From: a bacterium
GTDB lineage: Bacteria; Patescibacteriota; Microgenomatia; Levybacterales; UBA12049
Assembly: GCA_021777565.1 (NCBI GenBank)
Contig: JAJYDJ010000002.1
Span: 69,082-133,081, forward strand
Direction of reading: 5' to 3'
Length of the DNA: 64,000 nt
The notes under the pieces were generated by a model. That model did not search any database. It was not told the DNA's origin and worked only from the letters and a program-made list of their open reading frames with translations. The translations under genes were made by a program, and so were the position numbers. This document shows, piece by piece, positions 1-16,884 of the stretch. Each line of letters opens with the position of its first letter. Within the stretch, counting starts at the first letter, position 1.

Positions 1-1079
1 CAAATCCAGCTCTTAATCCAATTAATATAGAAGGTAATGCCCAAAATAATAGCAATGTTGTCTCTGGGAGTAATACTGATATCCCAACCATCCTTACTGG
101 ACAACCAAATCATATATTTAATTACTATATTACGAATGCATATATTGGTCCCCTTGAAAACTTGCTTGGATTAACTCCTCTCACAGATTCTCCGTCAATA
201 ATTGGCTATAACTTACTAAATGGCCTCCTTCCAGGTGTTGGCACGCTTTTTGGGACACTTCAAGCAATTTCCCATGGATTGAGTCCTATTGAAGGACTTT
301 TTTATATGATTTCTGCAGATATGGCAGCTCCAGGAGCTACTTTTATGGGTGATCTTGCATCTCGAATAGAAGTAGGAGGTACTAACTTGTGGGCACCAGT
401 ACTTGGGGTAGGGGCGAGTACAGCAGCCTATGCGATTCTTGTCCCTATAATTATGGGGCTTATTAGCCTAAACATAGCAACCATCTTTCAGGTTATTCTT
501 ATCGTTTCTGTATTTATAGGTGTAATTATGCTTCTCATCATGCTCATTAAGGCTTTCATGTCTATCATTTTTTCTACTGTCCTTGCGCCTCTTGCTATTG
601 TTCTTGGTATTTTCCCTGGATCTGGAGAAGGATTTGGACATTGGGCTAAAGGTCTTATTGCAGACTTTCTACTCTTTCCAGCAGTACTTGGATTATTTCA
701 TCTTGGTTATGACATTGCAAGTGTGATCAATACGGATACCACAGGCTTCTTTACTCCGCTCTTCATTCCTTCTAGCCTTCTTAAGGCTACAACCGACCAT
801 GGCTATGGCCAACTAAACTTTGCTCATAGTGGGACAATTAATGGGCTTTCTTTAATTGTAATTTACTTTACAATTTTTGCTGCAGCTTCATTGAGAGATG
901 TTCTTAGGAAGAGTCTCGGAGTTGCTGATAATCCACTAGTTACTGCAGCCATGGGAATAGCTTTGGGTGGGAGTAAACAGGTACAAAGTCGTTTAGGTCT
1001 AAAAATGAGTAAAATACCGGAGCTTAAAAACACAGCTCAGTTCAAAAGTGCAATGCTAGGAAAGATTGGCGGCCCCTAA
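1..1079 (+). CDS. Polytopic membrane protein, VirB6/TrbL-like (T4SS inner-membrane channel component); 5' partial because the reading frame is open to the window edge
   Basis: Frame 3 has no stop from nt 3 to the listed ORF at 162. The protein has more than five hydrophobic helices. It sits immediately upstream of the pilin-like genes and VirB4. The family assignment rests on topology and context only. Confidence 0.4.
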   Translation, partial: NPALNPINIEGNAQNNSNVVSGSNTDIPTILTGQPNHIFNYYITNAYIGPLENLLGLTPLTDSPSIIGYNLLNGLLPGVGTLFGTLQAISHGLSPIEGLFYMISADMAAPGATFMGDLASRIEVGGTNLWAPVLGVGASTAAYAILVPIIMGLISLNIATIFQVILIVSVFIGVIMLLIMLIKAFMSIIFSTVLAPLAIVLGIFPGSGEGFGHWAKGLIADFLLFPAVLGLFHLGYDIASVINTDTTGFFTPLFIPSSLLKATTDHGYGQLNFAHSGTINGLSLIVIYFTIFAAASLRDVLRKSLGVADNPLVTAAMGIALGGSKQVQSRLGLKMSKIPELKNTAQFKSAMLGKIGGP

Positions 1080-2960: not shown

Positions 2961-3290
2961 ATGAACAATATTGCCTTATCAATTAACGGTGTTCAATATA
3001 ACCTCCCTGGACCAATTGAAAATCTCAACAATGCAGCAGGAAGCCTTGGTGTAAATATTATAAATACTACTATTAACCTTCTTTTCATAATTGCAGTTAT
3101 TATTGCCTTGTTTTATTTAGTTTCTGGGGGAGTTAAGTGGATAATCTCTGGGGGTGATCAAAAAAAAATAGAAGGAGCACGTAATACCATTACATATTCT
3201 GTAATTGGACTTGTACTTGTCTTCATTTCATTTATTATTATGAATTTCCTGTCTAATTTCTTTGGTATTCCTCTTCTTGGGAATTCATAG
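2961..3290 (+). CDS. T4SS pilin-like protein (VirB2/TrbC-like two-helix hairpin)
   Basis: The motif LFYLVSGGVKWIISGGDQKKIEGARNTITYSVIGLVLVFISFIIM is shared with the three neighbouring paralogues. The start codon is 2 nt after the upstream stop. Confidence 0.5.
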   Translation: MNNIALSINGVQYNLPGPIENLNNAAGSLGVNIINTTINLLFIIAVIIALFYLVSGGVKWIISGGDQKKIEGARNTITYSVIGLVLVFISFIIMNFLSNFFGIPLLGNS

Positions 3291-3528
3291 ATCTGCCAAT
3301 GTGCTCAGTATAGGACAAACGGATTAAGTAAAAAATAAATTCTGAAAGAGATGGAAATGCATCTTCTCTGGAGACCATGACATGATATAAACTTTTTCAC
3401 CAGATCAGACAACAAAACAAAGATTGGGTTCATAGAATATACTCATTTTCACAATTAACTACGGCTGATACTACCAACCAGCTTGCCTATTGACAAAATG
3501 TAAAAACTTACCTAGGCTTAATATAGTT

Positions 3529-3933
3529 ATGAAAAAAATAATCGTCTTTGCGAGTAGTCTCGGAGCAGTACTGTCTTTGGCAACCCCAGCATTTGCTACA
3601 GGTGGACTTGGAAGCATTTGCCCTCAAGGTGCATTTGGTAACCTTTGTGGTAATTCACAAAATGCCTTTGGTAGTACTATTAGTTCATTTTTGACTCTTA
3701 TTTTTGTTGTTTCCGCTATCATTGCATTGGTCTTCTTGGTTTTGGGTGGTATCCGTTGGATTACCTCACAAGGAGATGCAAAAAATGTCGGTTCAGCAAG
3801 AGATCAAATTATCAATTCTTTAATTGGTTTAGGAGTTGTATTTATCTCATACATTTTGATTAACGTTATTCTCTACTTCTTTACTGGCGGAAGTCTTAGT
3901 CAAGTCAATATACCAACATTTAACGCTCAATAA
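3529..3933 (+). CDS. T4SS pilin-like protein with a cleavable signal peptide
   Basis: The internal start MKKIIVFASSLGAVLSLATPAFA is signal-peptide-like. The motif LVLGGIRWITSQGDAKNVGSARDQIINSLIGLGVVFISYIL follows. The ORF-track start at 3490 is probably an N-terminal over-extension. Confidence 0.5.
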   Translation: MKKIIVFASSLGAVLSLATPAFATGGLGSICPQGAFGNLCGNSQNAFGSTISSFLTLIFVVSAIIALVFLVLGGIRWITSQGDAKNVGSARDQIINSLIGLGVVFISYILINVILYFFTGGSLSQVNIPTFNAQ

Positions 3934-3939
3934 TCCTCT

Positions 3940-4281
3940 ATGTTTAACTGGGGAACATGCATGCAAGACCCAATCACAGGTGCTACTAATCTGGGTTACT
4001 TGACGTTTAACTGCCTTCCAAATTTTTTTCAAGGGGTCATCCAGACAGCACTCTCATTCGTAGGGATCACTTGTGCTATTTTTATTATTATTGCGGGATT
4101 TAAACTCGTATCCTCACAAGGTGATGCAAAAAAAATTGCAGAAGGGAGAAACACTCTCACATTCGCACTTATTGGACTTGTAGTGGTTATCCTTTCCTTC
4201 ACTATTATTCACTTCTTCTCATACGTTACTGGTTTAGGATGTTTGATGAATCTTAACTTTGGAACTGGTTGTACACAATAG
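3940..4281 (+). CDS. T4SS pilin-like protein
   Basis: The motif IIAGFKLVSSQGDAKKIAEGRNTLTFALIGLVVVILSFTIIH is a paralogue of the three upstream pilin-like domains. Confidence 0.5.
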   Translation: MFNWGTCMQDPITGATNLGYLTFNCLPNFFQGVIQTALSFVGITCAIFIIIAGFKLVSSQGDAKKIAEGRNTLTFALIGLVVVILSFTIIHFFSYVTGLGCLMNLNFGTGCTQ

Positions 4282-4323: not shown

Positions 4324-5688
4324 ATGGACCAAGATATGCGCCATCCCATCCCTCAGGACATTACTGGATTTAAATTTAGATTAGTTGGAGATATTACGCT
4401 GAAACAATTTACTTATCTCGCCATCGGCGGAGGTGCAGCGTGGTTTATCTATTCCCTCCCAGTCTGGGGCGTAGTGAAATATCCAATAGTCGGCATATTT
4501 ACTATTGGAGCTCTCATTCTTACCTTCCTGCCGATCCAAGGCCGTCCTGCAGACGCCATGATTATGTTGTTTTTTAAAACTGTTTTTCGCAATAATCAAT
4601 ATACTAAGCGTCCTAAGAGACCAGCACCTGCTATGACACCAAATCAACCTACCAGTACACCACCAACGCCGGCACCTGCTGCTGCCGAAGCTCAAACACC
4701 ACCCGATATGCTGGCTATACCAGTAATTGATGAATCAGCACTGCACAATGAAGCTGCGTCACAACCGACCTTTCCTGAGCAACCTACCACACCATCTAAG
4801 ACAACCCCTCAGATCGCACCTGAATCACCTATTACGACAGAGCAAACACCTGAAACTCCATCAACAAAGATAGCCATACCTTCACAGCCAGCCATGCCAG
4901 AGACACCTGTTACAACAAGCATGACAGAGCAACCATCAACAGAAGCGCCAACAGCTCCAACCCAACCTGAGACAACGGCCGAAGAGATGACTCAGCCGTC
5001 AGAGATACCTCAATCAGCACCAACAGGTACTCCTACCCCATCGTTTGAAGTGACAGAGATTCATGCACGGCCTCATGATGATAAAGAAGATCTTCTCAAG
5101 CGTATTCAGGAGCTTGAGGCACAACTAAAGGCTCAAGCACAAGAACAACAACCTACTGTGCAAGAGGCAGCGATGCAAGAAACTACTACACAAACAGCTC
5201 CTGAAACGACAGTGCAAGCACTTGATCAACTTCAAACACAGCCTGTTCAGGCACTTGTTGATGCTACGCGAGTAGAGACATCGGAACCTATGAACCCCAC
5301 ACCCGTGGCTGAGCCTGTTACGACACAACCGACGGTTCTAACACCAACACCAACGACGCCTGCGTTGCAATCTAGTGATGTACCAAATATGGTGATTGGC
5401 CAGATTATTGACCCACGTGGATTGCCACTTGCAAATATCTTAGTTGAGATCGTTGATACACAGAAAAACCCGGTGAGAGCTTTTAAGTCAGCACAGAATG
5501 GTCAATTTGCCACAGCGACCCCACTGACAGCAGGCTCTTATCTGCTGATGTGTGAAGATCCCGAAGGAAAGCAGAAATTTCAACCAATGCCTCTTTTGGT
5601 TAATGATACTATCCTCTCCCCTCTCACTATTCAGTCTACCGATGAGCGCGAAGAATTACGAAAAGCACTCTTTACACCCAGTGTATGA
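4324..5688 (+). CDS. PrgI/VirB3-like membrane protein with a roughly 230-aa Pro/Thr/Glu-rich linker and a C-terminal transthyretin/carboxypeptidase-regulatory-like beta-sandwich domain
   Basis: The N-terminus FKFRLVGDITLKQFTYLAIGGGAAWFIYSLP followed by two TM helices resembles the PrgI family and lies directly upstream of VirB4. A low-complexity PT-rich tract follows. The C-terminal VIGQIIDPRGLPLANILVEIVDT...GSYLLMCEDPEGKQ has a CarbopepD_reg-like pattern. Confidence 0.5.
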   Translation: MDQDMRHPIPQDITGFKFRLVGDITLKQFTYLAIGGGAAWFIYSLPVWGVVKYPIVGIFTIGALILTFLPIQGRPADAMIMLFFKTVFRNNQYTKRPKRPAPAMTPNQPTSTPPTPAPAAAEAQTPPDMLAIPVIDESALHNEAASQPTFPEQPTTPSKTTPQIAPESPITTEQTPETPSTKIAIPSQPAMPETPVTTSMTEQPSTEAPTAPTQPETTAEEMTQPSEIPQSAPTGTPTPSFEVTEIHARPHDDKEDLLKRIQELEAQLKAQAQEQQPTVQEAAMQETTTQTAPETTVQALDQLQTQPVQALVDATRVETSEPMNPTPVAEPVTTQPTVLTPTPTTPALQSSDVPNMVIGQIIDPRGLPLANILVEIVDTQKNPVRAFKSAQNGQFATATPLTAGSYLLMCEDPEGKQKFQPMPLLVNDTILSPLTIQSTDEREELRKALFTPSV

Positions 5689-6245
5689 GCCAAATTGTTT
5701 CAACACAAGATTTTACAGAGATAGCGGACATCCAAGGTGATATTGTTGTTATGACCAATGGTGGTGCCTGTATTATTGTGGAAATTTTCTCCACCAACTT
5801 CGCCCTTCTCTCTCAAGATGAACAGATGAGTAAAATCGTTGGCTTTAGTTCTTTTCTTAACTCCATCACGTTCCCGTTACAAATTCTGGTCATCAATAAG
5901 CGTGTTGATATTAGTAACTACATCGCAGTGCTAAAAAGCGAAGAAACACACGCACAAAACCCCGAGGCCAATGCGTACATCAGTGCCTATACCAACTTTG
6001 TACAAAATTTAGTGAAAGATAATATCGTCCTAGATAAACGTTTTTTTGCAGTGATTTCTTATTCTCCGCTTGAATCGGGTGTTATTGGACTTGTCGATCC
6101 AAAAGATATTGTTGAAAAAGCAAAGGCAAGTCTGCAATCCAAAGCACAGTCGGTGCAGAGCCTTCTTACTCGAATGAATTTTCAGTCAAAAATCCTAGCT
6201 GATGATGCATTGAAAGGAGTGTATCTATCACTTTACATACAATAA
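5685..6245 (+). CDS. VirB4 N-terminal domain fragment (split VirB4, part 1)
   Basis: MSQIVSTQDFTEIADIQGDIVVMTNGGACIIVEI...LSQDEQ resembles the start of VirB4/TrbE/CagE. The ORF stops 1 nt before the next ATG. Confidence 0.5.
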   Translation: MSQIVSTQDFTEIADIQGDIVVMTNGGACIIVEIFSTNFALLSQDEQMSKIVGFSSFLNSITFPLQILVINKRVDISNYIAVLKSEETHAQNPEANAYISAYTNFVQNLVKDNIVLDKRFFAVISYSPLESGVIGLVDPKDIVEKAKASLQSKAQSVQSLLTRMNFQSKILADDALKGVYLSLYIQ

Positions 6246-6246
6246 T

Positions 6247-8028
6247 ATGGCAAGCATAGCACCAAAGAAATATACCAAAGAGGAAGTAGTAATCAAAAGA
6301 GTCAATGCTGAGTTGCAAGATAGCATTGCGCCACAGACTATTGAGACAGATTTCTCATACGTAAAAGTAAACGATAAATTCTATCGAACTTTTTTCGTAA
6401 ACGGTTACCCTCGTTATGTCTCAACAAACTGGCTCCAGCCTTTGATTGATTTTAACCACGAGTTAAATATTAGTTTTTTCATTTATCCCTCAGAGTCAGC
6501 TGAAGTGCTTGATAACATCCAGAGAAAGATTGCAGAACTGGAAGCGACACTCTCTTCCAACGCTGATACAGGGAAACCGGTTGATCCTAAAATTACTGCG
6601 ACACTAGAAGACGCGCTTAATATTCAAGAAGAGCTTGCAAAAGGAATAGAAAAATTCTTTCATCTTGGTTTGTATATGACTCTCGTTGGATCAACGCTTG
6701 CTGAGCTCAATACAACTTCAAAACAGTTAACCACAACCCTTGGCTCACTCCTTCTGGCGACACAGCCTGCAACACTACAGATGGAAGATGGCTTTAAAAC
6801 AACTCTTCCTTATGGACTAGATCGCGTACAACAAACAAGAAATATGGATACGACATCTCTGTCGTCCATGTTCCCTTTCTCAAGTGCCACTCTGACGCAA
6901 AATAAGGGGGTTCTATACGGTATTAATGAACAGAACGCCTCACTAGTCGTCTTTGATAGATTCTCCATGGAAAACGCCAATGAAATCGTTTTCGGGAAGT
7001 CTGGTTCTGGGAAGTCTTACCTTATTAAATTAGAAATTTTAAGAACCTTCATGTTTGGGACAGAAGTGATTGTCATCGATCCTGAAAATGAATATGAGCT
7101 GGTGGCCAAGGCGCTGGGAGGAGAATATGTTGCATTCTCTGCTGAGTCTGCTGTGCGCATTAATCCATTTGATCTTTCTGGGATGCATGATGATAGTACC
7201 AATGAACTTGGAGAAAAAATATTATCACTCCACGCTTTACTAAAGATAGCTATGGGAGAGATCTCACCAGTTATGGATGCCATTTTAGATCGTGCTCTTA
7301 TCCAGACCTACGAACAAAAAGGCATTACGCAGGACCCAACAACTCAAAGTAAAACACCACCTATCATGCAGGATTTGTATGACACACTCAATACAATGAA
7401 AGAGACAGAAGCAAAAGAGCTCGCACTGAGACTAGAGAGATTCATTCGTGGGAGTCTTGCTGGATTTTTCAATCAACAATCTAATTTCAATATCACCAAT
7501 CCTCTTACGGTCTTTTCAATTCGTGATGTAGAAGATGAACTCAGACCACTCGTTATGCATATAATCCTTGACTTTATTTGGACTAAAGTTCGAAAAACCC
7601 TCAAAAAGCGTCTTTTGATCGTTGATGAAGCCTGGCTTCTGATGCGCTACGAAGATAGTGCATCTTTTATCTTTGGTATTGCAAAACGAGGACGTAAATA
7701 CTATCTCGGCTTGACTACGGCTACCCAAGATGTGGCTGACTTTTTGAGTACGCAATATGGGAAAGCTATTCTTTCCAACGCTTCTATTCAGATTCTTCTC
7801 AAACAGAGTACAACTGAAATTGATGAAGTTGCCAATATTTTTTATCTTTCACAAAACGAGAGACAATTACTCATGTCAGCTGAGGTTGGAGAAGGACTTT
7901 TCTTTGCTGGGCAGAATCATGTCGCAATACGTGTCGTTGCAGCAAGCTTTGAACATCAAATTATTACCTCAAAACCAGAAGACGTATTGAAAGCAAAAGC
8001 GCTGCTTACTACACCCGAACAGGCATAA
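6247..8028 (+). CDS. virB4: Type IV secretion ATPase VirB4 (TrbE/CagE family), C-terminal two-thirds
   Basis: Walker A GKSGSGKS, IDPENEY, Walker B LLIVDEAW and RKYYLGLTTATQDVAD are characteristic VirB4 motifs. Confidence 0.8.
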   Translation: MASIAPKKYTKEEVVIKRVNAELQDSIAPQTIETDFSYVKVNDKFYRTFFVNGYPRYVSTNWLQPLIDFNHELNISFFIYPSESAEVLDNIQRKIAELEATLSSNADTGKPVDPKITATLEDALNIQEELAKGIEKFFHLGLYMTLVGSTLAELNTTSKQLTTTLGSLLLATQPATLQMEDGFKTTLPYGLDRVQQTRNMDTTSLSSMFPFSSATLTQNKGVLYGINEQNASLVVFDRFSMENANEIVFGKSGSGKSYLIKLEILRTFMFGTEVIVIDPENEYELVAKALGGEYVAFSAESAVRINPFDLSGMHDDSTNELGEKILSLHALLKIAMGEISPVMDAILDRALIQTYEQKGITQDPTTQSKTPPIMQDLYDTLNTMKETEAKELALRLERFIRGSLAGFFNQQSNFNITNPLTVFSIRDVEDELRPLVMHIILDFIWTKVRKTLKKRLLIVDEAWLLMRYEDSASFIFGIAKRGRKYYLGLTTATQDVADFLSTQYGKAILSNASIQILLKQSTTEIDEVANIFYLSQNERQLLMSAEVGEGLFFAGQNHVAIRVVAASFEHQIITSKPEDVLKAKALLTTPEQA

Positions 8029-9109
8029 TAAGATGAAGGAATGATTCATCGTTGGTATTTTTCAACACGGCAGGACTTAACGGTGCGGTCATCTCAAATA
8101 CAACCTCGTCAGTCGAAATTGCATTTACCCCATCTAGTAAAAATCGTGGATTAAACGCTATCGCATTCTCCTCACCCTTGAGTGTCCCTTCAATAGTCAC
8201 CGTACTCTCCCCTACTGATGCTGTCTGGGCAAACATGCGCATCTGGTCTTTATGTAACTCACAGACCAAAACACTGGTGCTGTCCCGTGCAACCACAGAA
8301 CAAATCTTAACAGCTCGAAGCAAATCATCTTTTTTCACGATTATTTTGCTCGAGGCTTCATGGGGAATAATTTTACTATAGCTTGGGAACTCTCCCTCGA
8401 TTTTTCTTCCCGCGATACGTACTCCGTCCTGAACAGCCACAATTTGATTTACCTGGTCTGATAAATAGAATTGAATTGGCATATCTTCTCGCAGTGCCCC
8501 AAGTTCTTTTAAGAATCGCGATGAGAACACAATCCCTTTCTGCTCTTCTCCAGCCTCTTCACGTGGGATACTTACTAAAGAAAGTCTAAATCCATCAGTT
8601 GCGACAAAACGGATTTCATTTTCTTTCCTTTCACACAAAACCCCTGACCAGATCGGCTTAGTTACCTCACTACTGGTAGCAAACAACGTATATTTTGTGA
8701 TTTTCTCCATGTCTTTTGGTTGAAGGGTCAAAAATGCTACTTTAGTTTCCTCAAAAATATCAGGGAATTCATCGGCGGGCTGAACTTGTAATTTACTACT
8801 AATGCTCTCCCCTACTATCTGAATTGTGTTTTGTGCAGATGTTTTAAGGGTAATCTTTCCTTCAGGTACTTGTGATAATAGTTCGAGAAATGTTTTTGCT
8901 GGAACCGCTACTTCCCCTTCTTCATCTACTACACACTGAAACGTTGTTTCTATACTGAGTTCCAAATCTGTTGCAGTAAGAGTAACACTGTCTCCTTTGG
9001 CACGTACAAGAATTGACGACAATATAGGAAGTTGAGTGCGTGTCGAGATACTATGTGCAGTAAGCGCTAAATGTTTTTGTAAAATTCCAGATAAAACAGT
9101 GAACACCAT
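8009..9109 (-). CDS. dnaN: DNA polymerase III beta sliding clamp
   Basis: The length and sequence (LHLIMPVRV at the C-terminus, three-domain clamp pattern) fit DnaN. It lies downstream of dnaA. It overlaps the virB4 3' end by 20 nt in convergent orientation. Confidence 0.9.
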   Translation of the reverse strand: MVFTVLSGILQKHLALTAHSISTRTQLPILSSILVRAKGDSVTLTATDLELSIETTFQCVVDEEGEVAVPAKTFLELLSQVPEGKITLKTSAQNTIQIVGESISSKLQVQPADEFPDIFEETKVAFLTLQPKDMEKITKYTLFATSSEVTKPIWSGVLCERKENEIRFVATDGFRLSLVSIPREEAGEEQKGIVFSSRFLKELGALREDMPIQFYLSDQVNQIVAVQDGVRIAGRKIEGEFPSYSKIIPHEASSKIIVKKDDLLRAVKICSVVARDSTSVLVCELHKDQMRMFAQTASVGESTVTIEGTLKGEENAIAFNPRFLLDGVNAISTDEVVFEMTAPLSPAVLKNTNDESFLHLIMPVRV

Positions 9110-9239
9110 AGATTTATTCTAGTAGTTGTAGTAGTGTACCGGGAAAAGTGGAAAAACGCAAGGGATCGAGGCTAAAATAATGTGGATAACCGTGTGTACA
9201 ACTTTGGGGATGAAATGGGGACAACCCACCTCCTTCTAG
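9110..9239. promoter_or_regulatory. dnaA-dnaN intergenic region with DnaA boxes (candidate oriC or DnaA-box region)
   Basis: A perfect TGTGGATAA (reverse of TTATCCACA) sits at about 9181-9189, and a 7/9 box at about 9147-9155. Two further TTATCCCC boxes lie just inside the dnaA 3' end (about 9240-9247 and 9260-9267). Confidence 0.4.
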
Positions 9240-10622
9240 TTATCCCCTGAGATTTCGAGTTATCCCCATGATCTCCTCATTGAGTTCTGCACTGTTTTTC
9301 AACAGGTTTTCCACCTTTTCGATTCCATGCATAATGGTTGTGTGATCTCGTCCCCCAAGTAAATTCCCAATTTCAACCAGTGTTGTACCTAATTCTTGTT
9401 TAAGAAGAAACATTGTCACTTGTCGTGCCTTGACCAAGGCTGCATCTCGCTTGGGGCCTTTGAGCTGGGTAGGTTTGACATCATAGTACTCACAGGTGCT
9501 TTTAATAATATCGTCTGAGTGCAGGCGGAAACCAATTGGTTTGGCGTCTTTTAATATATTTGAAGCTAGTATTTTCTCTGCAGAGACCTGTCGTGTCTGA
9601 GCCTCAGTCATTACTCGAAGCAACGCTCCCTCAAGGCTTCTCACGTCCTGTTCTTTCTCTGCAATTGCCTTGGCTATCTCAATATCTATGTCATAGCCAA
9701 ACTTCTCTGCCTTTTTCATGATGATTGCGGTACGCATGGCAAAATCTGGTTCTTGAATATCAATGGTTAGCCCCCCAGCAAATCGTGAAGAGAGTCTTGC
9801 TTCAAGTTTTTTAATCTCCTGTGGTGGTTTATCTGAAGTCAGAACAATCTGTCCACCAGCATCGATAATAGCGTTAAAGGTGTGAAAGAGCTCTTCCTGC
9901 ACTTTCTCCTTACCCGAGATGAACTGAATATCATCAATAATGAGCAGATTGGCACTTCTAAAATATCGTTTCATAGCACTCGTATTATTGTTTCGAATGG
10001 CGTCAACAACACGGTTAATAAAATCTTCACTGGTGCAATAAATAATGGTGAGTGAACTGTCTTTTTGGTATGCCTGATTGGCAATGGCGTGCATGATATG
10101 CGTCTTCCCTACTCCGGTTGGACCATACACAAAAAGAGGGTTGTATGATCGCCCTAAGTTATTGGCCACGGTTTGAGCAGAGACATAGGCAAGTTGGTTG
10201 CTGTCTGAGACCGCTAAGTTTTCAAAGGTGAAATCTTTTCGTACGCGTGGAATATGTCCCATACTTGGCATGACTTCCTTTTTCTCAGTGAAGTCAAATT
10301 GGTCTTGCGGGAGTTTCTCTTTTACTTGTTTTTTAACCGTTTTCGTAGCGAACTCAAGTGTTGTAACTGGGGTAGGAGTGTATTTACTCATGGTCTCTTT
10401 CAGAAGGCTTGAAAACTTCTTATCTAAAAAGTCAGCAACGACTGTGGATAACGTCGCAATTTTTACTGTTGAGTCTTGAATTTCTATAACTTCTGATGTT
10501 TTAAAAAATGAAGTAAAATTACCCATGGAAACCTCAGTTTTTATATCCTGGAGCGTTTTCTCCCAAATTTCTTCCGTAGTCATCGTAGACTCAATTAAAG
10601 AATGTGGATAACTTCTTGTCAA
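9240..10622 (-). CDS. dnaA: Chromosomal replication initiator DnaA
   Basis: AAA+ Walker A GPTGVGKTH and box VII are present, together with the C-terminal DNA-binding signature KARQVTMFLLKQELGTTLVEIGNLLGGRDHTTIMH. It starts with TTG, and a perfect DnaA box (10603-10611) overlaps the start region. Confidence 0.95.
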   Translation of the reverse strand: MTRSYPHSLIESTMTTEEIWEKTLQDIKTEVSMGNFTSFFKTSEVIEIQDSTVKIATLSTVVADFLDKKFSSLLKETMSKYTPTPVTTLEFATKTVKKQVKEKLPQDQFDFTEKKEVMPSMGHIPRVRKDFTFENLAVSDSNQLAYVSAQTVANNLGRSYNPLFVYGPTGVGKTHIMHAIANQAYQKDSSLTIIYCTSEDFINRVVDAIRNNNTSAMKRYFRSANLLIIDDIQFISGKEKVQEELFHTFNAIIDAGGQIVLTSDKPPQEIKKLEARLSSRFAGGLTIDIQEPDFAMRTAIIMKKAEKFGYDIDIEIAKAIAEKEQDVRSLEGALLRVMTEAQTRQVSAEKILASNILKDAKPIGFRLHSDDIIKSTCEYYDVKPTQLKGPKRDAALVKARQVTMFLLKQELGTTLVEIGNLLGGRDHTTIMHGIEKVENLLKNSAELNEEIMGITRNLRG

Positions 10623-12158: not shown

Positions 12159-12602
12159 ATGGAACAAACAGCAAAAGAACTTATTCAGCAATTCTTCGAC
12201 GTCCTTGACGTTAAGACAGAATTTTCTGTCACAGAGGCAGACGGAGCTATTGAAGTTGAACTTACGGGTGAAGAAAATGGCATGCTCATTGGCTATCACG
12301 GTGAGACACTTGAAGCTCTCCAAGTTTTGATTAGTCTCATGCTTGCAAAAAAGACTGGAAGTTATATGCCAGTTTCCCTTGAAGTTGGTGAATATAAGAA
12401 AAATCGTATTGAACATTTGAAAGAAATAGTTGAGAATATGAAAGCTGACGTACTCAGTCAGCATCGTGCAATTGCATTCCCAAGACTCAAGTCATGGGAA
12501 CGTCGGTTTGTACACACATACCTTAAAGATGATCCAGAAGTTGGTACCCAATCAGAAGGAGAAGGTCGTGACCGCACTCTCTCAATTTATCCAAAAGCAT
12601 AA
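12159..12602 (+). CDS. jag: Jag/KhpB-like RNA-binding protein (KH plus R3H)
   Basis: It has an R3H-like C-terminus and lies immediately after yidC. The start was chosen at MEQTAKE, directly after the yidC stop. Confidence 0.7.
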   Translation: MEQTAKELIQQFFDVLDVKTEFSVTEADGAIEVELTGEENGMLIGYHGETLEALQVLISLMLAKKTGSYMPVSLEVGEYKKNRIEHLKEIVENMKADVLSQHRAIAFPRLKSWERRFVHTYLKDDPEVGTQSEGEGRDRTLSIYPKA

Positions 12603-13785
12603 GCTTCTAGAATATTCTTTTTTTCTTCTTATTTTTTGTTTTCCCATACAACTTGGTAAACATTTTTGGCCCTCATGGAGTTATCTACATGGAGTGAGAC
12701 TTGATTACCTCTCCCCCACACTCTACCTTACCGATATCCTGTCGCTTGTTGTGATCATCCTAGGAAGTATCACTCTGTATAAGACGTCACTTTATAAGTT
12801 CTCTCCTCGATCGCTTGTTTTAGGTGCCTTTTTATTGGTCAGCACAAGTATCAGTATTGCACTGTCATCAAACCCTTTTTTTGGATGGTATGAAATCATA
12901 AAAGGATTCGAATTTGTTTGTTTATTCCTTGTAGCAAAAAATCTTTTCAAAGATAAAAAAATACTAAGTACAAGTATTGTGATTTTGGTTGTAAGTTTGT
13001 TTTTGCAAATTGCACTCGCAAGTTATCAAGTTTTTTTTGCACATAGCGCGGGAGGACTTTTTTGGCTTCTTGGGGAAAGAACATTTGATGTAAGCACTCC
13101 AGGAATTGCACGTGATTCTCTTTCAGGCGTGTTACTTCTTCGTGGATATGGGACCTTTGCACATCCAAATGTTTTTGCGGGATACGTGGTTATTGTGGGC
13201 ATTGCAGCATGGTTTCTTTTTGGGGAAAGTAGATTGCGCTCTGCTCTCCTTTCATTACTCAGTCTTGGCCTCTTAGTAAGTATGAGCCGATTCCCACTTC
13301 TCCTGTGGGTCACATTCCTTACAACCGTCTCGCGCGGCACAGGAAAGATACTGTTTGGTTCCCTTTTTGTTTTGTTCATAGGTCTCCTACTACTTTTTAA
13401 TCCTCTTTCAGATCCGTCTCTTGCCGCAAGATTCGTGTATGTTCAAGACGTGTTTTATCACATCCAAAAGTATCCTCTATTTGGAATGGGGTTCGGAAAT
13501 TTTCTTGCTTTACCGGCGAGATTGGAGGCTGGAATAGGGCTTCCACAACCCGTACACAATGTTTTTCTTCTTATCTTGGATAGTCTTGGAATAGTGGGAT
13601 TTTCTCTTGTCTTAGTAGTGCTGTTTAAAACATTTCAGACCGCAAAAAAAGATAGGATGTCACTTCTGCTTTTTCTTGCCTGGATTGCGCTGGGGAGTTT
13701 TGACCATTATCTTTTGTCTCTTCAGCAGGGTCAACTGCTGACCACCCTTGTTTTTGCACTCATTTGGAGAGAGAATACGGTATGA
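12529..13785 (+). CDS. O-antigen ligase / Wzy-like polytopic membrane protein
   Basis: There are about 10-12 TM helices and a large outward loop containing a conserved His (GYGTFAHPNVFAGY). The start is uncertain: the ORF has no internal Met after the overlap with jag. Confidence 0.5.
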   Translation: MIQKLVPNQKEKVVTALSQFIQKHKLLEYSFFLLIFCFPIQLGKHFWPSWSYLHGVRLDYLSPTLYLTDILSLVVIILGSITLYKTSLYKFSPRSLVLGAFLLVSTSISIALSSNPFFGWYEIIKGFEFVCLFLVAKNLFKDKKILSTSIVILVVSLFLQIALASYQVFFAHSAGGLFWLLGERTFDVSTPGIARDSLSGVLLLRGYGTFAHPNVFAGYVVIVGIAAWFLFGESRLRSALLSLLSLGLLVSMSRFPLLLWVTFLTTVSRGTGKILFGSLFVLFIGLLLLFNPLSDPSLAARFVYVQDVFYHIQKYPLFGMGFGNFLALPARLEAGIGLPQPVHNVFLLILDSLGIVGFSLVLVVLFKTFQTAKKDRMSLLLFLAWIALGSFDHYLLSLQQGQLLTTLVFALIWRENTV

Positions 13786-14216
13786 ATGTCATCCTTATTC
13801 GAACTGATGGAGGATCACGAGGAAACCCTGGTCCAGCAGCCTCAGGGTATGTGATTGAGAAGGACGAGAATGTTATCGCTTCAGAAGGATATCCACTCGG
13901 TGACACAACCAATAATGTTGCTGAATATACTGCCGTGCTTCGTGCCTTTACTTGGTTAGCCTCACATCGGGAATCGATCGGGGATATTTCGGGAATAGAC
14001 CTCCGCATGGATAGCCTCCTTGTGTGCCAGCAGCTTAACGGCGTGTATAAAATAACCAAACCTCATTTACAGGAGATTTATGCTCAGATACAGGCACTTA
14101 TGAAGCAATTCCAGGTGCCAATTACCATAAAGCATGTGTACCGGGAAGAAAACACAAAGGCTGACTGGTTGGTGAACCTTGCGCTAGACAGTAAGATGAC
14201 GGTTTCTCTACAATAA
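13782..14216 (+). CDS. rnhA: Ribonuclease HI
   Basis: MNVILIRTDGGSRGNPGPAASGYVI...NNVAEYTA...N..AD is the RNase H catalytic pattern. Confidence 0.8.
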   Translation: MNVILIRTDGGSRGNPGPAASGYVIEKDENVIASEGYPLGDTTNNVAEYTAVLRAFTWLASHRESIGDISGIDLRMDSLLVCQQLNGVYKITKPHLQEIYAQIQALMKQFQVPITIKHVYREENTKADWLVNLALDSKMTVSLQ

Positions 14217-14220
14217 CAGT

Positions 14221-16884
14221 GTGTCTGCCCCAACAATTACACCAGAAACACAATCCATGGCGCCAATCCTTATTGTTGATAAGGGAGGGTTTTGGGGGGA
14301 GAGAATAGCCGATATTCTCAAGGATTTCTCTCAGGTAGTCCTGGTGTCCCCTCAGGAAAACGAGGCTACAGTCAACCCACTCTTCGTAAAATTTCATGAA
14401 AACATACCACAAATACCATCCGATAATTATTCACACGTGATTATTTTCTGGGATGGGGACAGTGTGACAAAGTTGCTTGTTGAGGCAAGTTTGGAGAAGG
14501 CTAAGGCAGACAATGCACGGATGCTTGTGTTTTTTACACAGAGCACATGGAACAGTGATATCGCGGCAGTGGTGAGACAGCACGGGGGAGTGGTTGGGGT
14601 TATTGGAGATGTATTTGGATCAGGGAGTAGTAGTCTTGCCCACGTACCACTAGATCATTACATTGTTGATGCAAAGAAAAAACATGGTGTCGAGCTTGCA
14701 GATATGGGACTTGTGACGAGAATGCCTATCTCATACAGTGAGACAGTAAAAGCACTCCTGACTCTCATCTTCCAGGAAGATAAACCTGCGCAGATACAAC
14801 TTCTCTACCCAGCAATCCCGACAACTGAATTGGGCTTTTTAAATGCACTAAAAAAGATTGACCCTGAGATTGGAATACGATTTCTTCCAAAAAAAGACTT
14901 GCCGACAACAAGAGAGATACCAGGTGTCTATGTACTCAATGACATTACTGATCCATTGAAAGAACTCCCTGACGTATATGCGCATACGGAAGTCACAAAA
15001 GAGGAAATAGCGGAGTTTGAGGAGCAGGTAAGACAAATGCAACCACCAGCGATAGTAAAGCATATAAAAAAACAAAAGCCGGTAGGGAAATGGTTTGTCT
15101 GGATGGTGAGTACGACGATCCTACTTAGTATTTTTGCCCCGTTGTTACTTCTCTTGGGGGCAGGGGGTTTTTTTCTCTCAGCAAAAAATGCAATTGAGTC
15201 GGGGAATGTTAAACAGAGTATCCAAAGCTTAACGCGAGGAGTGCAGTTAATAGATGGATACCAGGTTACTAGTTCGCCATGGCTACGATTGGCAACAAAT
15301 ATCTTGCCGCAAATACTTCCTTTGTCAGATCGGATCAATGGACTGTCAGTGGTAGGCAATAGTGCTCTGACGATCATGAGTTCTGCGGAAGGTATGACAC
15401 AATCTGGTGGGTATGCATCAGTAAACCTTTCTGAAGTGGGAGCAGTGAGCCGTCTTGGGATACAGCAGTTGCTAACAAATCAATGGCTTGCAGGAGAAAA
15501 AAAGAACTTTTCAATCACTGATATAAACACAACCCTCAGCGCACTTTCTCTTTTGCCTGTCATGGCTCCGCAACAGGGAACAAAACACTATCTTATTCTT
15601 TTCCAGAACAATGCAGAGCTGAGGCCGGGTGGTGGATTTATCGGTTCATACGCCATAGCAGATGTTACTAATGGGCAGTTGGCAAATCTTGATATTAAGG
15701 ATGTCTATGACGCTGATGGACAATTGAAGGGGCATGTTGAGCCACCATTTTTCTATCGACGATATCTGGCGCAACCTCACTTGTATCTGAGAGATAGCAA
15801 TTATGAATTTGATTTTCCAACGAACGCGCAGCATGCAGAGAGCATGCTCCACGCAGAACTTGGTCAGGATGTGGATGGAGTCATTGGCGTTGATCTTTTT
15901 GTTGTACAAGGCTTGTTGCAAGCGGTTGGCCCGGTCTATATTCCAGATTTTCAGGAAACTGTTACTGCAGACACATTCTTTCAACAAGCAGAGTCTCATT
16001 CTCAGGACAATTTCTTTGCAGGGTCCACACAAAAGAAAGATTACTTAGGAAGTGTTGTTCGTGCCCTTATGCCTAAACTCTCAGAGCAGGGGAACATGCT
16101 TTCGCTATCACGTGAACTTTTGAGTCTTGTCCAGAAAAAGCATATTCAGATATATAGTAATGATCAGGCGGCACTGGATATTCTCACCGCATCACATATG
16201 TCAGGTTCAGTTTGGGATGGAAGACCAAAAGGTGCAGGAAGATTAAATGACACGTTGTTTGTTAATGAAGCAAATGTTGGCGTGAACAAAGCGAATCAAG
16301 CAGTTACACGCACGCTTGATCAGACACTCATCGCCAGCAGTGACGGCACACTCTCAGACCAGGTTGTGCTTCAGATACAAAACACTAACCAAGAGGCGAG
16401 CGCTGCTGCAGGCATGTACACGAGTTACGTCCGTTTCCTTATCCCAGATGGTTCTACCCTTAGTACTATTGCTATTGATGGTGGGCTGCAACATGTCGTG
16501 CTTGCCGTGACTGATCCAAAGATATATGAAGGGAAAACATTTAAAGTTGATCCTATGGTGCTAGAAGTGAATCAAACGAGCGAGTTTGGAAAGAAAAGTA
16601 TTGGATTCTTGATCCGTGTTCCACAAAACACCACACAAAACATTCAACTAACGTATCAGCTTCCTTGGAGACTGACCTCTGCACAATCTCTGTTAACGTA
16701 CTCACAGCAACTGATAAAGCAATCTGGTATCGAAAGTATCCCGTATACCTTCCACACCCAATTTAATGGACTCTTTCACGCACTTACCAGTGATGCAGGG
16801 AAGCCAAACAGTGATGGAAGTCTTGAGAAGGCAATTGATTTACAATCAGATGTGACATTTACTTTCCCACTGGCAAGAAATTAA
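14221..16884 (+). CDS. Large bitopic membrane protein: N-terminal cytoplasmic domain (about 285 aa), one TM helix, then an extracytoplasmic DUF4012-like domain
   Basis: The TM helix is WFVWMVSTTILLSIFAPLLLLLGAGGFFLSA. YLILFQNNAELRPGGGFIGSYAIADVTNGQL matches my recollection of the DUF4012 core motif. Confidence 0.45.
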   Translation: MSAPTITPETQSMAPILIVDKGGFWGERIADILKDFSQVVLVSPQENEATVNPLFVKFHENIPQIPSDNYSHVIIFWDGDSVTKLLVEASLEKAKADNARMLVFFTQSTWNSDIAAVVRQHGGVVGVIGDVFGSGSSSLAHVPLDHYIVDAKKKHGVELADMGLVTRMPISYSETVKALLTLIFQEDKPAQIQLLYPAIPTTELGFLNALKKIDPEIGIRFLPKKDLPTTREIPGVYVLNDITDPLKELPDVYAHTEVTKEEIAEFEEQVRQMQPPAIVKHIKKQKPVGKWFVWMVSTTILLSIFAPLLLLLGAGGFFLSAKNAIESGNVKQSIQSLTRGVQLIDGYQVTSSPWLRLATNILPQILPLSDRINGLSVVGNSALTIMSSAEGMTQSGGYASVNLSEVGAVSRLGIQQLLTNQWLAGEKKNFSITDINTTLSALSLLPVMAPQQGTKHYLILFQNNAELRPGGGFIGSYAIADVTNGQLANLDIKDVYDADGQLKGHVEPPFFYRRYLAQPHLYLRDSNYEFDFPTNAQHAESMLHAELGQDVDGVIGVDLFVVQGLLQAVGPVYIPDFQETVTADTFFQQAESHSQDNFFAGSTQKKDYLGSVVRALMPKLSEQGNMLSLSRELLSLVQKKHIQIYSNDQAALDILTASHMSGSVWDGRPKGAGRLNDTLFVNEANVGVNKANQAVTRTLDQTLIASSDGTLSDQVVLQIQNTNQEASAAAGMYTSYVRFLIPDGSTLSTIAIDGGLQHVVLAVTDPKIYEGKTFKVDPMVLEVNQTSEFGKKSIGFLIRVPQNTTQNIQLTYQLPWRLTSAQSLLTYSQQLIKQSGIESIPYTFHTQFNGLFHALTSDAGKPNSDGSLEKAIDLQSDVTFTFPLARN

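Follow-up and report, generated by a model that had tools for sequence, protein, structure and literature searches.

The DNA analysed here, referred to throughout as the window, is a 64,000-nucleotide stretch of contig JAJYDJ010000002.1 (positions 69,082 to 133,081, forward strand; assembly GCA_021777565.1) from a bacterium of the patescibacterial class Microgenomatia, order Levybacterales. Close to its start lies a type IV secretion system (T4SS) operon of pilin, prgI, trsD and virB4 genes, and the subject of this study is its prgI gene, an ATG-initiated open reading frame (ORF) at 4324..5688 on the plus strand that encodes 454 residues followed by a stop codon. The gene product is the VirB3/PrgI inner-membrane subunit of a chromosomal, origin-proximal Patescibacteria T4SS. 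A first-pass annotation made from the letters of the window had remarked that this VirB3/PrgI-like protein lies far beyond the usual size, and it does so against a norm for VirB3 of 10–15 kDa (PMC12857230). Because its length of 454 residues (314–505 in orthologues) falls outside that short-tailed norm, while its profile match, membrane hairpin, trailing helix and gene position are those of the family, the protein is an extended VirB3/PrgI variant rather than a canonical member.

The protein divides into a membrane module and a C-terminal extension of ~360 residues. The PrgI/VirB3 module (4324..4593, residues 1–90) is delimited by the Pfam PrgI match at residues 8–87, by invariant alignment columns and by the helices of a full-length AlphaFold2 model, which places membrane helices at residues 22–44 and 49–67 and an amphipathic helix at 76–88. 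Downstream of these the model is disordered over residues 90–250, helical over 251–285, disordered over 286–355 and folded as a sandwich over 358–437, with a last helix at 441–450. The first disordered linker (4606..5073, residues 95–250) stands out by its composition (P 22%, T 19%, A 12%, E 10%; net charge −11) and by a predicted local distance difference test (pLDDT) score below 50. It leads into a conserved amphipathic or coiled-coil helix, DKEDLLKRIQELEAQLKAQAQEQQ (5074..5178, residues 251–285), defined by AlphaFold2 and the alignment, and this is followed by a second disordered linker (5179..5388, residues 286–355; T 24%, P 16%, Q 11%) assigned from the model and from composition. A transthyretin/CarboxypepD_reg-like seven-strand β-sandwich occupies 5389..5634 (residues 356–437; AlphaFold2, Foldseek, Pfam PF13620 and a profile comparison with PDB sequences), and a conserved C-terminal helix and tail, S-x-D-x-REELRKALF, closes the protein (5635..5685, residues 438–454; invariant columns, model helix 441–450).

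The region between membrane module and sandwich had been described as a low-complexity tract of about 230 residues rich in Pro, Thr, Glu, Ala and Gln. The composition stands, those five residues making up 68% of residues 95–355; the tract is really ~260 residues long, however, and is not uniform, since it contains the conserved helix of ~35 residues. AlphaFold2 resolves that helix into segments 251–274 and 276–285 with a block-mean pLDDT of 70–87 across residues 251–280, and in the family alignment it follows the consensus AHxKxxELEKxLxExxxQKExLExEL, in which L261 and Q267 are at least 90% conserved. It is the one alignable element in orthologue linkers that otherwise vary in length (112–287 residues, median 201) and composition. 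The linker of the window protein is the most Pro/Thr-rich of the family (35% P+T versus a median of 16%) and carries a net charge of −22, and the linkers of most orthologues are instead rich in Lys, Glu and Gln. An origin of the linker from tandem repeats in the DNA was considered and rejected, as its coding sequence holds nothing of that kind beyond one 15-nucleotide AACACC run. Two further motifs recur in the linkers of most orthologues and are lacking or degenerate in the window protein: L-D-x-K/R-E-x-x-F early in the linker (alignment columns ~140–160) and VRKIPxxMxKSxGxPxxPD just ahead of the sandwich (columns ~540–560, corresponding to the region of window residues 286–355). Both may be short linear binding motifs.

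Both ends of the window protein match known families, PrgI (PF12666) at residues 8–87 (E 1.1e-4, 23.1 bits against a gathering score of 27) and CarboxypepD_reg (PF13620) at residues 358–418 (E 2.6e-5, 24.9 bits against a gathering score of 32.3). All 34 aligned relatives match both families, PF13620 at E ≤ 1e-3, with best values of 3.5e-12 for PrgI and 1.7e-8 for CarboxypepD_reg, and one relative (P0010) reaches a PrgI score of 28.1 bits, over the cutoff of 27. Across the PrgI module, whose hydrophobic region (residues 26–72) is present in every relative, the window protein is 42–54% identical to them. Searching a database with the complete protein yielded 50 homologues (300–523 residues, E down to 3e-52), 42 of which were already annotated with both domains, and the identical 454-residue protein was found on several independent contigs from different samples. 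When all ORFs of related loci were scanned with hidden Markov models, both modules lay within a single ORF at 84 of 86 loci (314–505 residues, median 420); the two exceptions, L082 and L083, are frameshift-ridden assemblies in which VirB4 is broken up too. A scan of one genome per species placed relatives in 427 species genomes, and the named ones among the best 80 of these belong to Levybacteria/Levyibacteriota, Gottesmanbacteria, Woesebacteria and the 'Microgenomates group', all of the class Microgenomatia. In an exhaustive search, the C-domain profile matched 294 cluster representatives (E ≤ 1e-30), of which almost all have a length of 230–535 residues and carry the domain at their very C-terminal end; the few giant proteins among them contain many CarboxypepD_reg repeats over which scores are summed.

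These distributions bear directly on the suspicion that a short PrgI gene has merely been joined to an unrelated downstream gene by assembly or annotation. Only the unusual length speaks for such an artefact, and the recurrence of the identical protein on independent contigs, of the architecture at 84 of 86 loci and of relatives in hundreds of species genomes refutes it, leaving a probability that is practically nil. The extension is not an artefact. The comparison with orthologues that had been proposed for it thus finds the extension retained in the relatives and its C-terminal part similar to a known fold. The architecture had also been called unusual; that is correct among T4SSs in general, but within Microgenomatia it is the rule. 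Searches with the N- or C-terminal part separately returned mostly short proteins of 75–216 residues, which suggested stand-alone genes for the C-domain. This idea was rejected because the split ORFs examined are contig-end fragments or the products of assembly gaps or frameshifts; that of L081, for example, is caused by a run of N within what is really one 314-residue ORF. Many of the metagenome-assembled genome records that carry the operon (L015–L017, L019–L021, L023, L027, L028 and others; binchicken/SRP co-assemblies) are titled 'uncultured Gammaproteobacteria bacterium', almost certainly as a placeholder or through mislabelling.

Conservation is concentrated at the two ends of the protein. 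In the N-terminal module the alignment retains HPIPQDxTGFxFxLxG in the N-tail and GRPxDxM behind the membrane helices. The last 115 residues retain PNxxxGxxxDxRGNxLxNILVExxD, PxRAFKTNxLGQF and the terminal S-x-D-x-REELRKxLF, whose invariant residues S438, D440, R442, E443, L445, R446, L449 and F450 are kept across orders. Averaged over alignment columns, identity reaches 65% for the C-domain, sandwich and terminal helix together, versus 61% for the PrgI module.

The fold of this C-terminal domain was approached through an AlphaFold2 model of residues 338–454 built with 30 aligned sequences, which has a mean pLDDT of 84, exceeding 90 over the sandwich, and consists of seven strands and the terminal helix. 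Foldseek compared the model with the PDB and returned top matches at E 9e-5 to ~2e-3 with a probability of 1.00. These comprise the transthyretin-like domains of carboxypeptidases D, N and M and CnaB2, together with SlaB, the B-type domains of UafA and SdrD, transthyretin and 5-hydroxyisourate hydrolase. The sequence profile of the domain, searched against PDB sequences, independently recovers carboxypeptidase M (E 1.2e-4) and the SdrD B domain (E 2.5e-3). The carboxypeptidase-regulatory/transthyretin-like fold that the first-pass annotation had guessed at is therefore confirmed by structure comparison (Foldseek E 9e-5 to 1e-3) as well as by profile, and as modelled the C-terminal domain is a transthyretin/CarboxypepD_reg-like fold. 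It shares the seven-strand sandwich with the transthyretin-like domains of metallocarboxypeptidases D, M and N and with CnaB-type domains, at template modelling (TM) scores of 0.5–0.6 normalised to the query and sequence identities of only 14–22%, but the motifs NILVExxD and PxRAFKTNxLGQF and the terminal helix are its own and are absent from those families; unlike them, it is joined to the membrane anchor of a T4SS and is probably located in the cytoplasm. A sortase-anchored surface protein was considered and dropped, as the C-terminus lacks an LPXTG motif. The corresponding profile search with the N-domain gave no significant match to PDB sequences, and Foldseek with the full-length model returned sandwich matches only.

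On which side of the membrane this extension lies is the question on which its interpretation turns. Because the membrane module is a two-helix hairpin, the N- and C-termini must lie on the same side. Over 84 orthologues the N-tail holds on average 2.6 Lys plus Arg residues and the first 30 residues behind the second membrane helix hold 3.9, compared with 0.8 for the 8-residue loop. In every one of the 84 the flanks have at least 3 more of these residues than the loop, and for all of them the positive-inside rule predicts an N-in/C-in hairpin. An invariant Arg, that of the GRP motif, directly follows the second membrane helix. No third hydrophobic segment was found in 82 orthologue linkers, in which the highest 19-residue Kyte–Doolittle mean is 1.55, and there is no signal peptide. 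A possible third membrane helix at ADAMIMLFFKTVF was dropped as too short and amphipathic. The extension is free of Cys in 79 of 85 proteins. The topology of Agrobacterium VirB3 was reportedly addressed through PhoA and GFP experiments by Mossey et al. in 2010. Canonical VirB3 has short cytoplasmic extensions at both ends (PMC12857230) and wraps the cytoplasmic N-domain of VirB4 one-to-one (PMC12857230; PMC9259494).

A further marker for topology comes from a related locus, L051, in which the gene directly after virB4 (12273–14795 of that locus) encodes an 840-residue protein with no signal peptide and two N-terminal transthyretin-like domains. The first of these matches Pfam CarboxypepD_reg (E 2.3e-5), and the second (KTNALGSFA...) is homologous to the PrgI C-domain, with a pairwise E of 1e-6 and ~1e-8 against Gottesmanbacteria-type orthologues. 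They are followed by a long charged linker and a single membrane helix at residues 465–484, with 10 Lys or Arg in the 60 residues ahead of the helix and 1 in the 60 after it, and with 12 Cys in the C-terminal domain against 1 on the N-side. Orthologues of this C-terminal domain at L043 and L017 consist of a short basic N-tail, a membrane helix and the domain only, and contain a transglycosylase-like LWIEE(S/T)G motif, joined in L017 by an M23-like HLHWEF; Pfam detects Peptidase_M23 in the equivalent L081 protein. Peptidase and lysozyme homologues are also encoded after virB4 in Southlakia (PMC12102498), and these motifs together with the published Southlakia gene content suggest that the C-terminal domains of the L051 type are wall hydrolases. 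Because of the bias in basic residues, the Cys-rich hydrolase-like domain on the exterior and the layout of the orthologues, the L051 protein is clearly predicted to be N-in/C-out, with both sandwiches in the cytoplasm.

Further L051-type hydrolases with N-terminal sandwiches were not found among the other scanned loci (86 loci in all), and a metagenome scan gave no close relative. The L051 protein appears to be an uncommon case in which the PrgI-type sandwich has been re-used by a second membrane protein of the T4SS. The gene after virB4 in Gottesmanbacteria-type loci (L071 11796–14009, L063 11875–14196, L067 11969–14218, L068 9458–11656) encodes an M23-like hydrolase with an N-terminal region of ~500 residues ahead of its single membrane helix; this region looks α-helical by eye and is predicted to lie in the cytoplasm. 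It seems that large add-ons on the cytoplasmic side of membrane parts recur in such T4SSs.

Taken together, the hairpin, the bias in basic residues, the lack of a third segment, the canonical VirB3 termini and the L051 marker make it probable that the extension lies in the cytoplasm, on an N-in/C-in hairpin. The first-pass annotation had envisaged the opposite arrangement, a stalk and head possibly spanning the cell wall. Here the hairpin would be N-out/C-out, the linker would run through peptidoglycan and S-layer, and the head would sit in the outer conduit or touch the pilus or host, replacing a VirB8-like part. Several observations count against a cytoplasmic placement and in favour of such a stalk. 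The bacterial uses of the fold are mostly extracellular (CnaB and SdrD domains, pilins, the S-layer protein SlaB, carboxypeptidase domains), and the structural neighbours of the C-domain are mainly surface proteins; a linker of about 110–290 residues could span the envelope, and that of the window protein is Pro/Thr-rich. VirB8 homologues are scarce in Patescibacteria T4SSs, which largely have no recognisable VirB8-type wall-spanning part (PMC12102498), so that an external stalk would close an evident gap. As to the cytoplasmic placement itself, L051 is a marker from one genome only, and the positive-inside rule and homology are indirect grounds for topology. A weakness of the overall assignment is that both Pfam scores of the window protein fall under their gathering thresholds. 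Set against the stalk are the basic flanks in 84 of 84 orthologues and the invariant Arg after the second helix, the lack of a signal peptide or third membrane segment, and the cytoplasmic, VirB4-binding termini of canonical VirB3. The homologous L051 sandwich is predicted to be cytoplasmic, and the extension is Cys-free in nearly all proteins whereas the exported hydrolase domain of L051 has 12 Cys. Nor can the Pro/Thr-rich linker be a conserved wall-spanning feature, its composition being peculiar to the window protein and not kept in the family. We therefore regard the stalk as unlikely. A VirB8 analogue was also dropped, since the protein has two membrane helices rather than a single-pass N-in/C-out arrangement and its C-domain is transthyretin-like rather than NTF2-like.

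The operon in which the gene lies is collinear with its relatives, the order pilins, PrgI, TrsD and VirB4 being conserved in related loci. At the left edge, the window cuts a plus-strand gene for a 584-residue multi-pass membrane protein with a signal peptide, of which the 3′ part is present (1..1079); the full gene is seen in L084 (5002–6756), where the operon starts with a 182-residue membrane protein with a weak DUF5673 match (4457–5005) and continues with the 584-residue protein. The latter has no Pfam match. VirB6 is rarely detectable in Microgenomatia (PMC12102498), and by position and membrane topology only this protein is a candidate for the 'missing' VirB6. Four plus-strand genes upstream of prgI encode VirB2-like pilins (1085–2959, 2961–3290, 3490–3933 and 3940–4281; PF18895 T4SS_pilin, E 2e-6 to 5e-11). 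The first of them is a 624-residue protein whose sole recognisable part is the C-terminal pilin domain at residues 550–611, with ~540 residues ahead of it that have no assignment; it may represent a giant pilin or, alternatively, a tip or adhesin fusion at the head of the pilin array.

Downstream of prgI follow, on the same strand, a TrsD/TraC-like gene of 186 residues (5685..6245; NCBIfam TrsD NF041427, E 8.7e-6; PF26593 TraC-like) and a VirB4-family ATPase gene of 593 residues (6247..8028; P-loop_TraG, E 4e-29; NCBIfam CD1110-family VirB4, E 5e-115, 385 bits against a cutoff of 325). The prgI stop codon overlaps the trsD start (ATGA) and a single nucleotide separates the trsD stop from the virB4 start, which suggests translational coupling of PrgI, TrsD and VirB4. 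The VirB4 function is split between the two genes, the TrsD-like ORF covering positions 109–230 of a VirB4 model and the 593-residue protein the part from ~180 or 282 onwards, depending on the model. Convergent with virB4 are dnaN and dnaA on the minus strand (8009..10622; Pfam). The 3′ ends of virB4 and dnaN overlap by 20 nucleotides (8009–8028), and the T4SS operon therefore runs directly into the genes of the origin region, which continue with rpmH, rnpA, yidD and yidC; the cumulative GC-skew minimum lies at ~10–12 kb in the window. Just past the origin genes are a Wzy_C-like membrane protein (12466–13785) and an 887-residue DUF4012 protein (14221–16884, plus strand), which possibly serve envelope or polysaccharide functions unconnected with PrgI. 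Among 20 further large ORFs of the window that were scanned, a set that does not cover every ORF, there was no relaxase or VirD4; they are housekeeping or other chromosomal genes. An Rfam scan of the window returned nothing.

With the extension probably in the cytoplasm, we propose that it is a docking module tethered to the VirB3/PrgI anchor of the Patescibacteria T4SS, which we hold to be the best overall explanation with reasonable, if limited, confidence. The N-terminal 90 residues would retain the canonical role, the hairpin and amphipathic helix in the membrane holding VirB4 and TrsD, the putative split-off N-terminal piece of VirB4, against the membrane. To this the lineage has added an extension of four parts, a flexible linker, a conserved amphipathic helix, the transthyretin-like sandwich and the invariant terminal helix REELRKxLF, present in six copies per machine if the analogy with plasmid R388 holds. 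With ~200 residues, a linker could extend along the outside of the VirB4 barrel down to its base, and each copy may form a flexible arm in the cytoplasm. Conservation of the sandwich and terminal helix is on a par with that of the PrgI module, which points to a conserved partner. That partner might be VirB4, TrsD, the cytoplasmic region of the membrane hydrolase of the operon, or a secretion substrate or its adaptor, and the arm may make up for the absence from these systems of VirB8 tails, VirB11 and a coupling protein encoded in the operon. Both partner and role are speculative. In a more specific version that we offer only tentatively, sandwich and terminal helix would constitute a built-in cytoplasmic receptor or assembly arm, six of which capture substrates or hold an outer layer of VirB4 and TrsD, replacing coupling protein, VirB11 and VirB8 tails. 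The L051 hydrolase tail hints that the same sandwich module docks several parts to one hub.

The degree of conservation also bears on whether any specific partner need be invoked. The extension might instead be a passive spacer or oligomerisation aid that stabilises the VirB3 hexamer or positions the machine, or it might be processed into halves that act separately. The poorly conserved linker sequence would be consistent with this, as would the different, helical extension of the 300-residue Southlakia PrgI, which implies that the type of head is replaceable, and the N-only and C-only ORF calls that occur in databases. However, every split ORF examined could be traced to a fragment, a gap in the assembly or a frameshift artefact, and conservation of the sandwich and terminal helix equal to that of the PrgI module argues for a specific interaction, which renders a passive role distinctly improbable. 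A tethered cytoplasmic docking module is the reading we retain.

The locus type is already published (2025, PMC12102498), and what is new is an extension on a known component, an instance of domain accretion rather than a new kind of machine. The Patescibacteria T4SS is so far the only T4SS shown to be essential for the growth of its owner, and PrgI is among the essential Ca. Southlakia genes (PMC10633639; PMC12857230). The VirB3 anchor of this system carries a large and strongly conserved add-on across a whole class, with a different one in Saccharimonadia, and the extension offers a handle on an essential system that works with no dedicated coupling protein, VirB11 or clear VirB8. As baits for the partner, be it a substrate, an adaptor or a part of the machine, the invariant surface of the sandwich and the REELRKxLF helix suggest themselves. 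Intuition would place a stalk and head of this kind outside the cell, a view that a cytoplasmic location would also correct.

Comparison with characterised systems sets the extension apart from the conserved core. PrgI of Enterococcus faecalis pCF10, an MPF-FATA VirB3 homologue, resembles the N-terminal module of the window protein in its profile and in having two membrane helices and a following helix. Its gene, like that in the window, lies just upstream of that for the VirB4-type ATPase (PMC12857230), with the difference that in the window trsD is placed between prgI and virB4. It is, however, a protein of 117 residues with short tails against 454 residues with a ~360-residue extension. In the cryo-electron microscopy structure of the R388 system, the hairpin of TrwM/VirB3 wraps the N-domain of VirB4, one for each central VirB4 subunit (PMC9259494), and the role of the window module is presumed to be alike. 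TrwM has no extra domain, and R388 also possesses the VirB8 tails, VirB11 and VirD4 that are lacking in the window operon. The VirB3–VirB4 fusions of some conjugative systems illustrate that the C-terminus of VirB3 can run on into a large cytoplasmic polypeptide (PMC12102498); the add-on of the window protein is not an ATPase, and such fusions are not found in Patescibacteria (PMC12102498).

The Patescibacteria T4SS locus described by Quinonero-Coronel et al. in 2025 (PMC12102498) combines an MPF-FATA-related VirB4, TrsD, PrgI/VirB3 and several PF18895 pilins beside dnaA with no relaxase nearby, and the window operon is of the same kind. That paper makes no mention of a C-terminal extension or of CarboxypepD_reg on VirB3/PrgI ('carboxypeptidase' has 0 occurrences), and a full-text literature search found no paper joining PrgI with 'carboxypeptidase regulatory'. 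In Saccharimonadia, the PrgI protein SEML1_0010 of Ca. Southlakia epibionticum ML1 is also extended (903 nucleotides, ~300 residues, PF12666 at residues 5–90), and its gene, located early in the genome numbering, adjoins those putatively encoding TrsD and VirB4 (PMC10633639). It is essential for epibiotic growth (Wang et al. 2023, supplementary tables, PMC10633639). By annotation alone, its extension is set apart from that of the window protein as a small helical domain (ECOD TFIIS-domain-2/KIX-like) and not a sandwich. Because the Southlakia PrgI is extended too, extended PrgI proteins are a general and hitherto undiscussed trait of Patescibacteria. In the Microgenomatia-type genomes sampled, this trait takes the form of the sandwich head.

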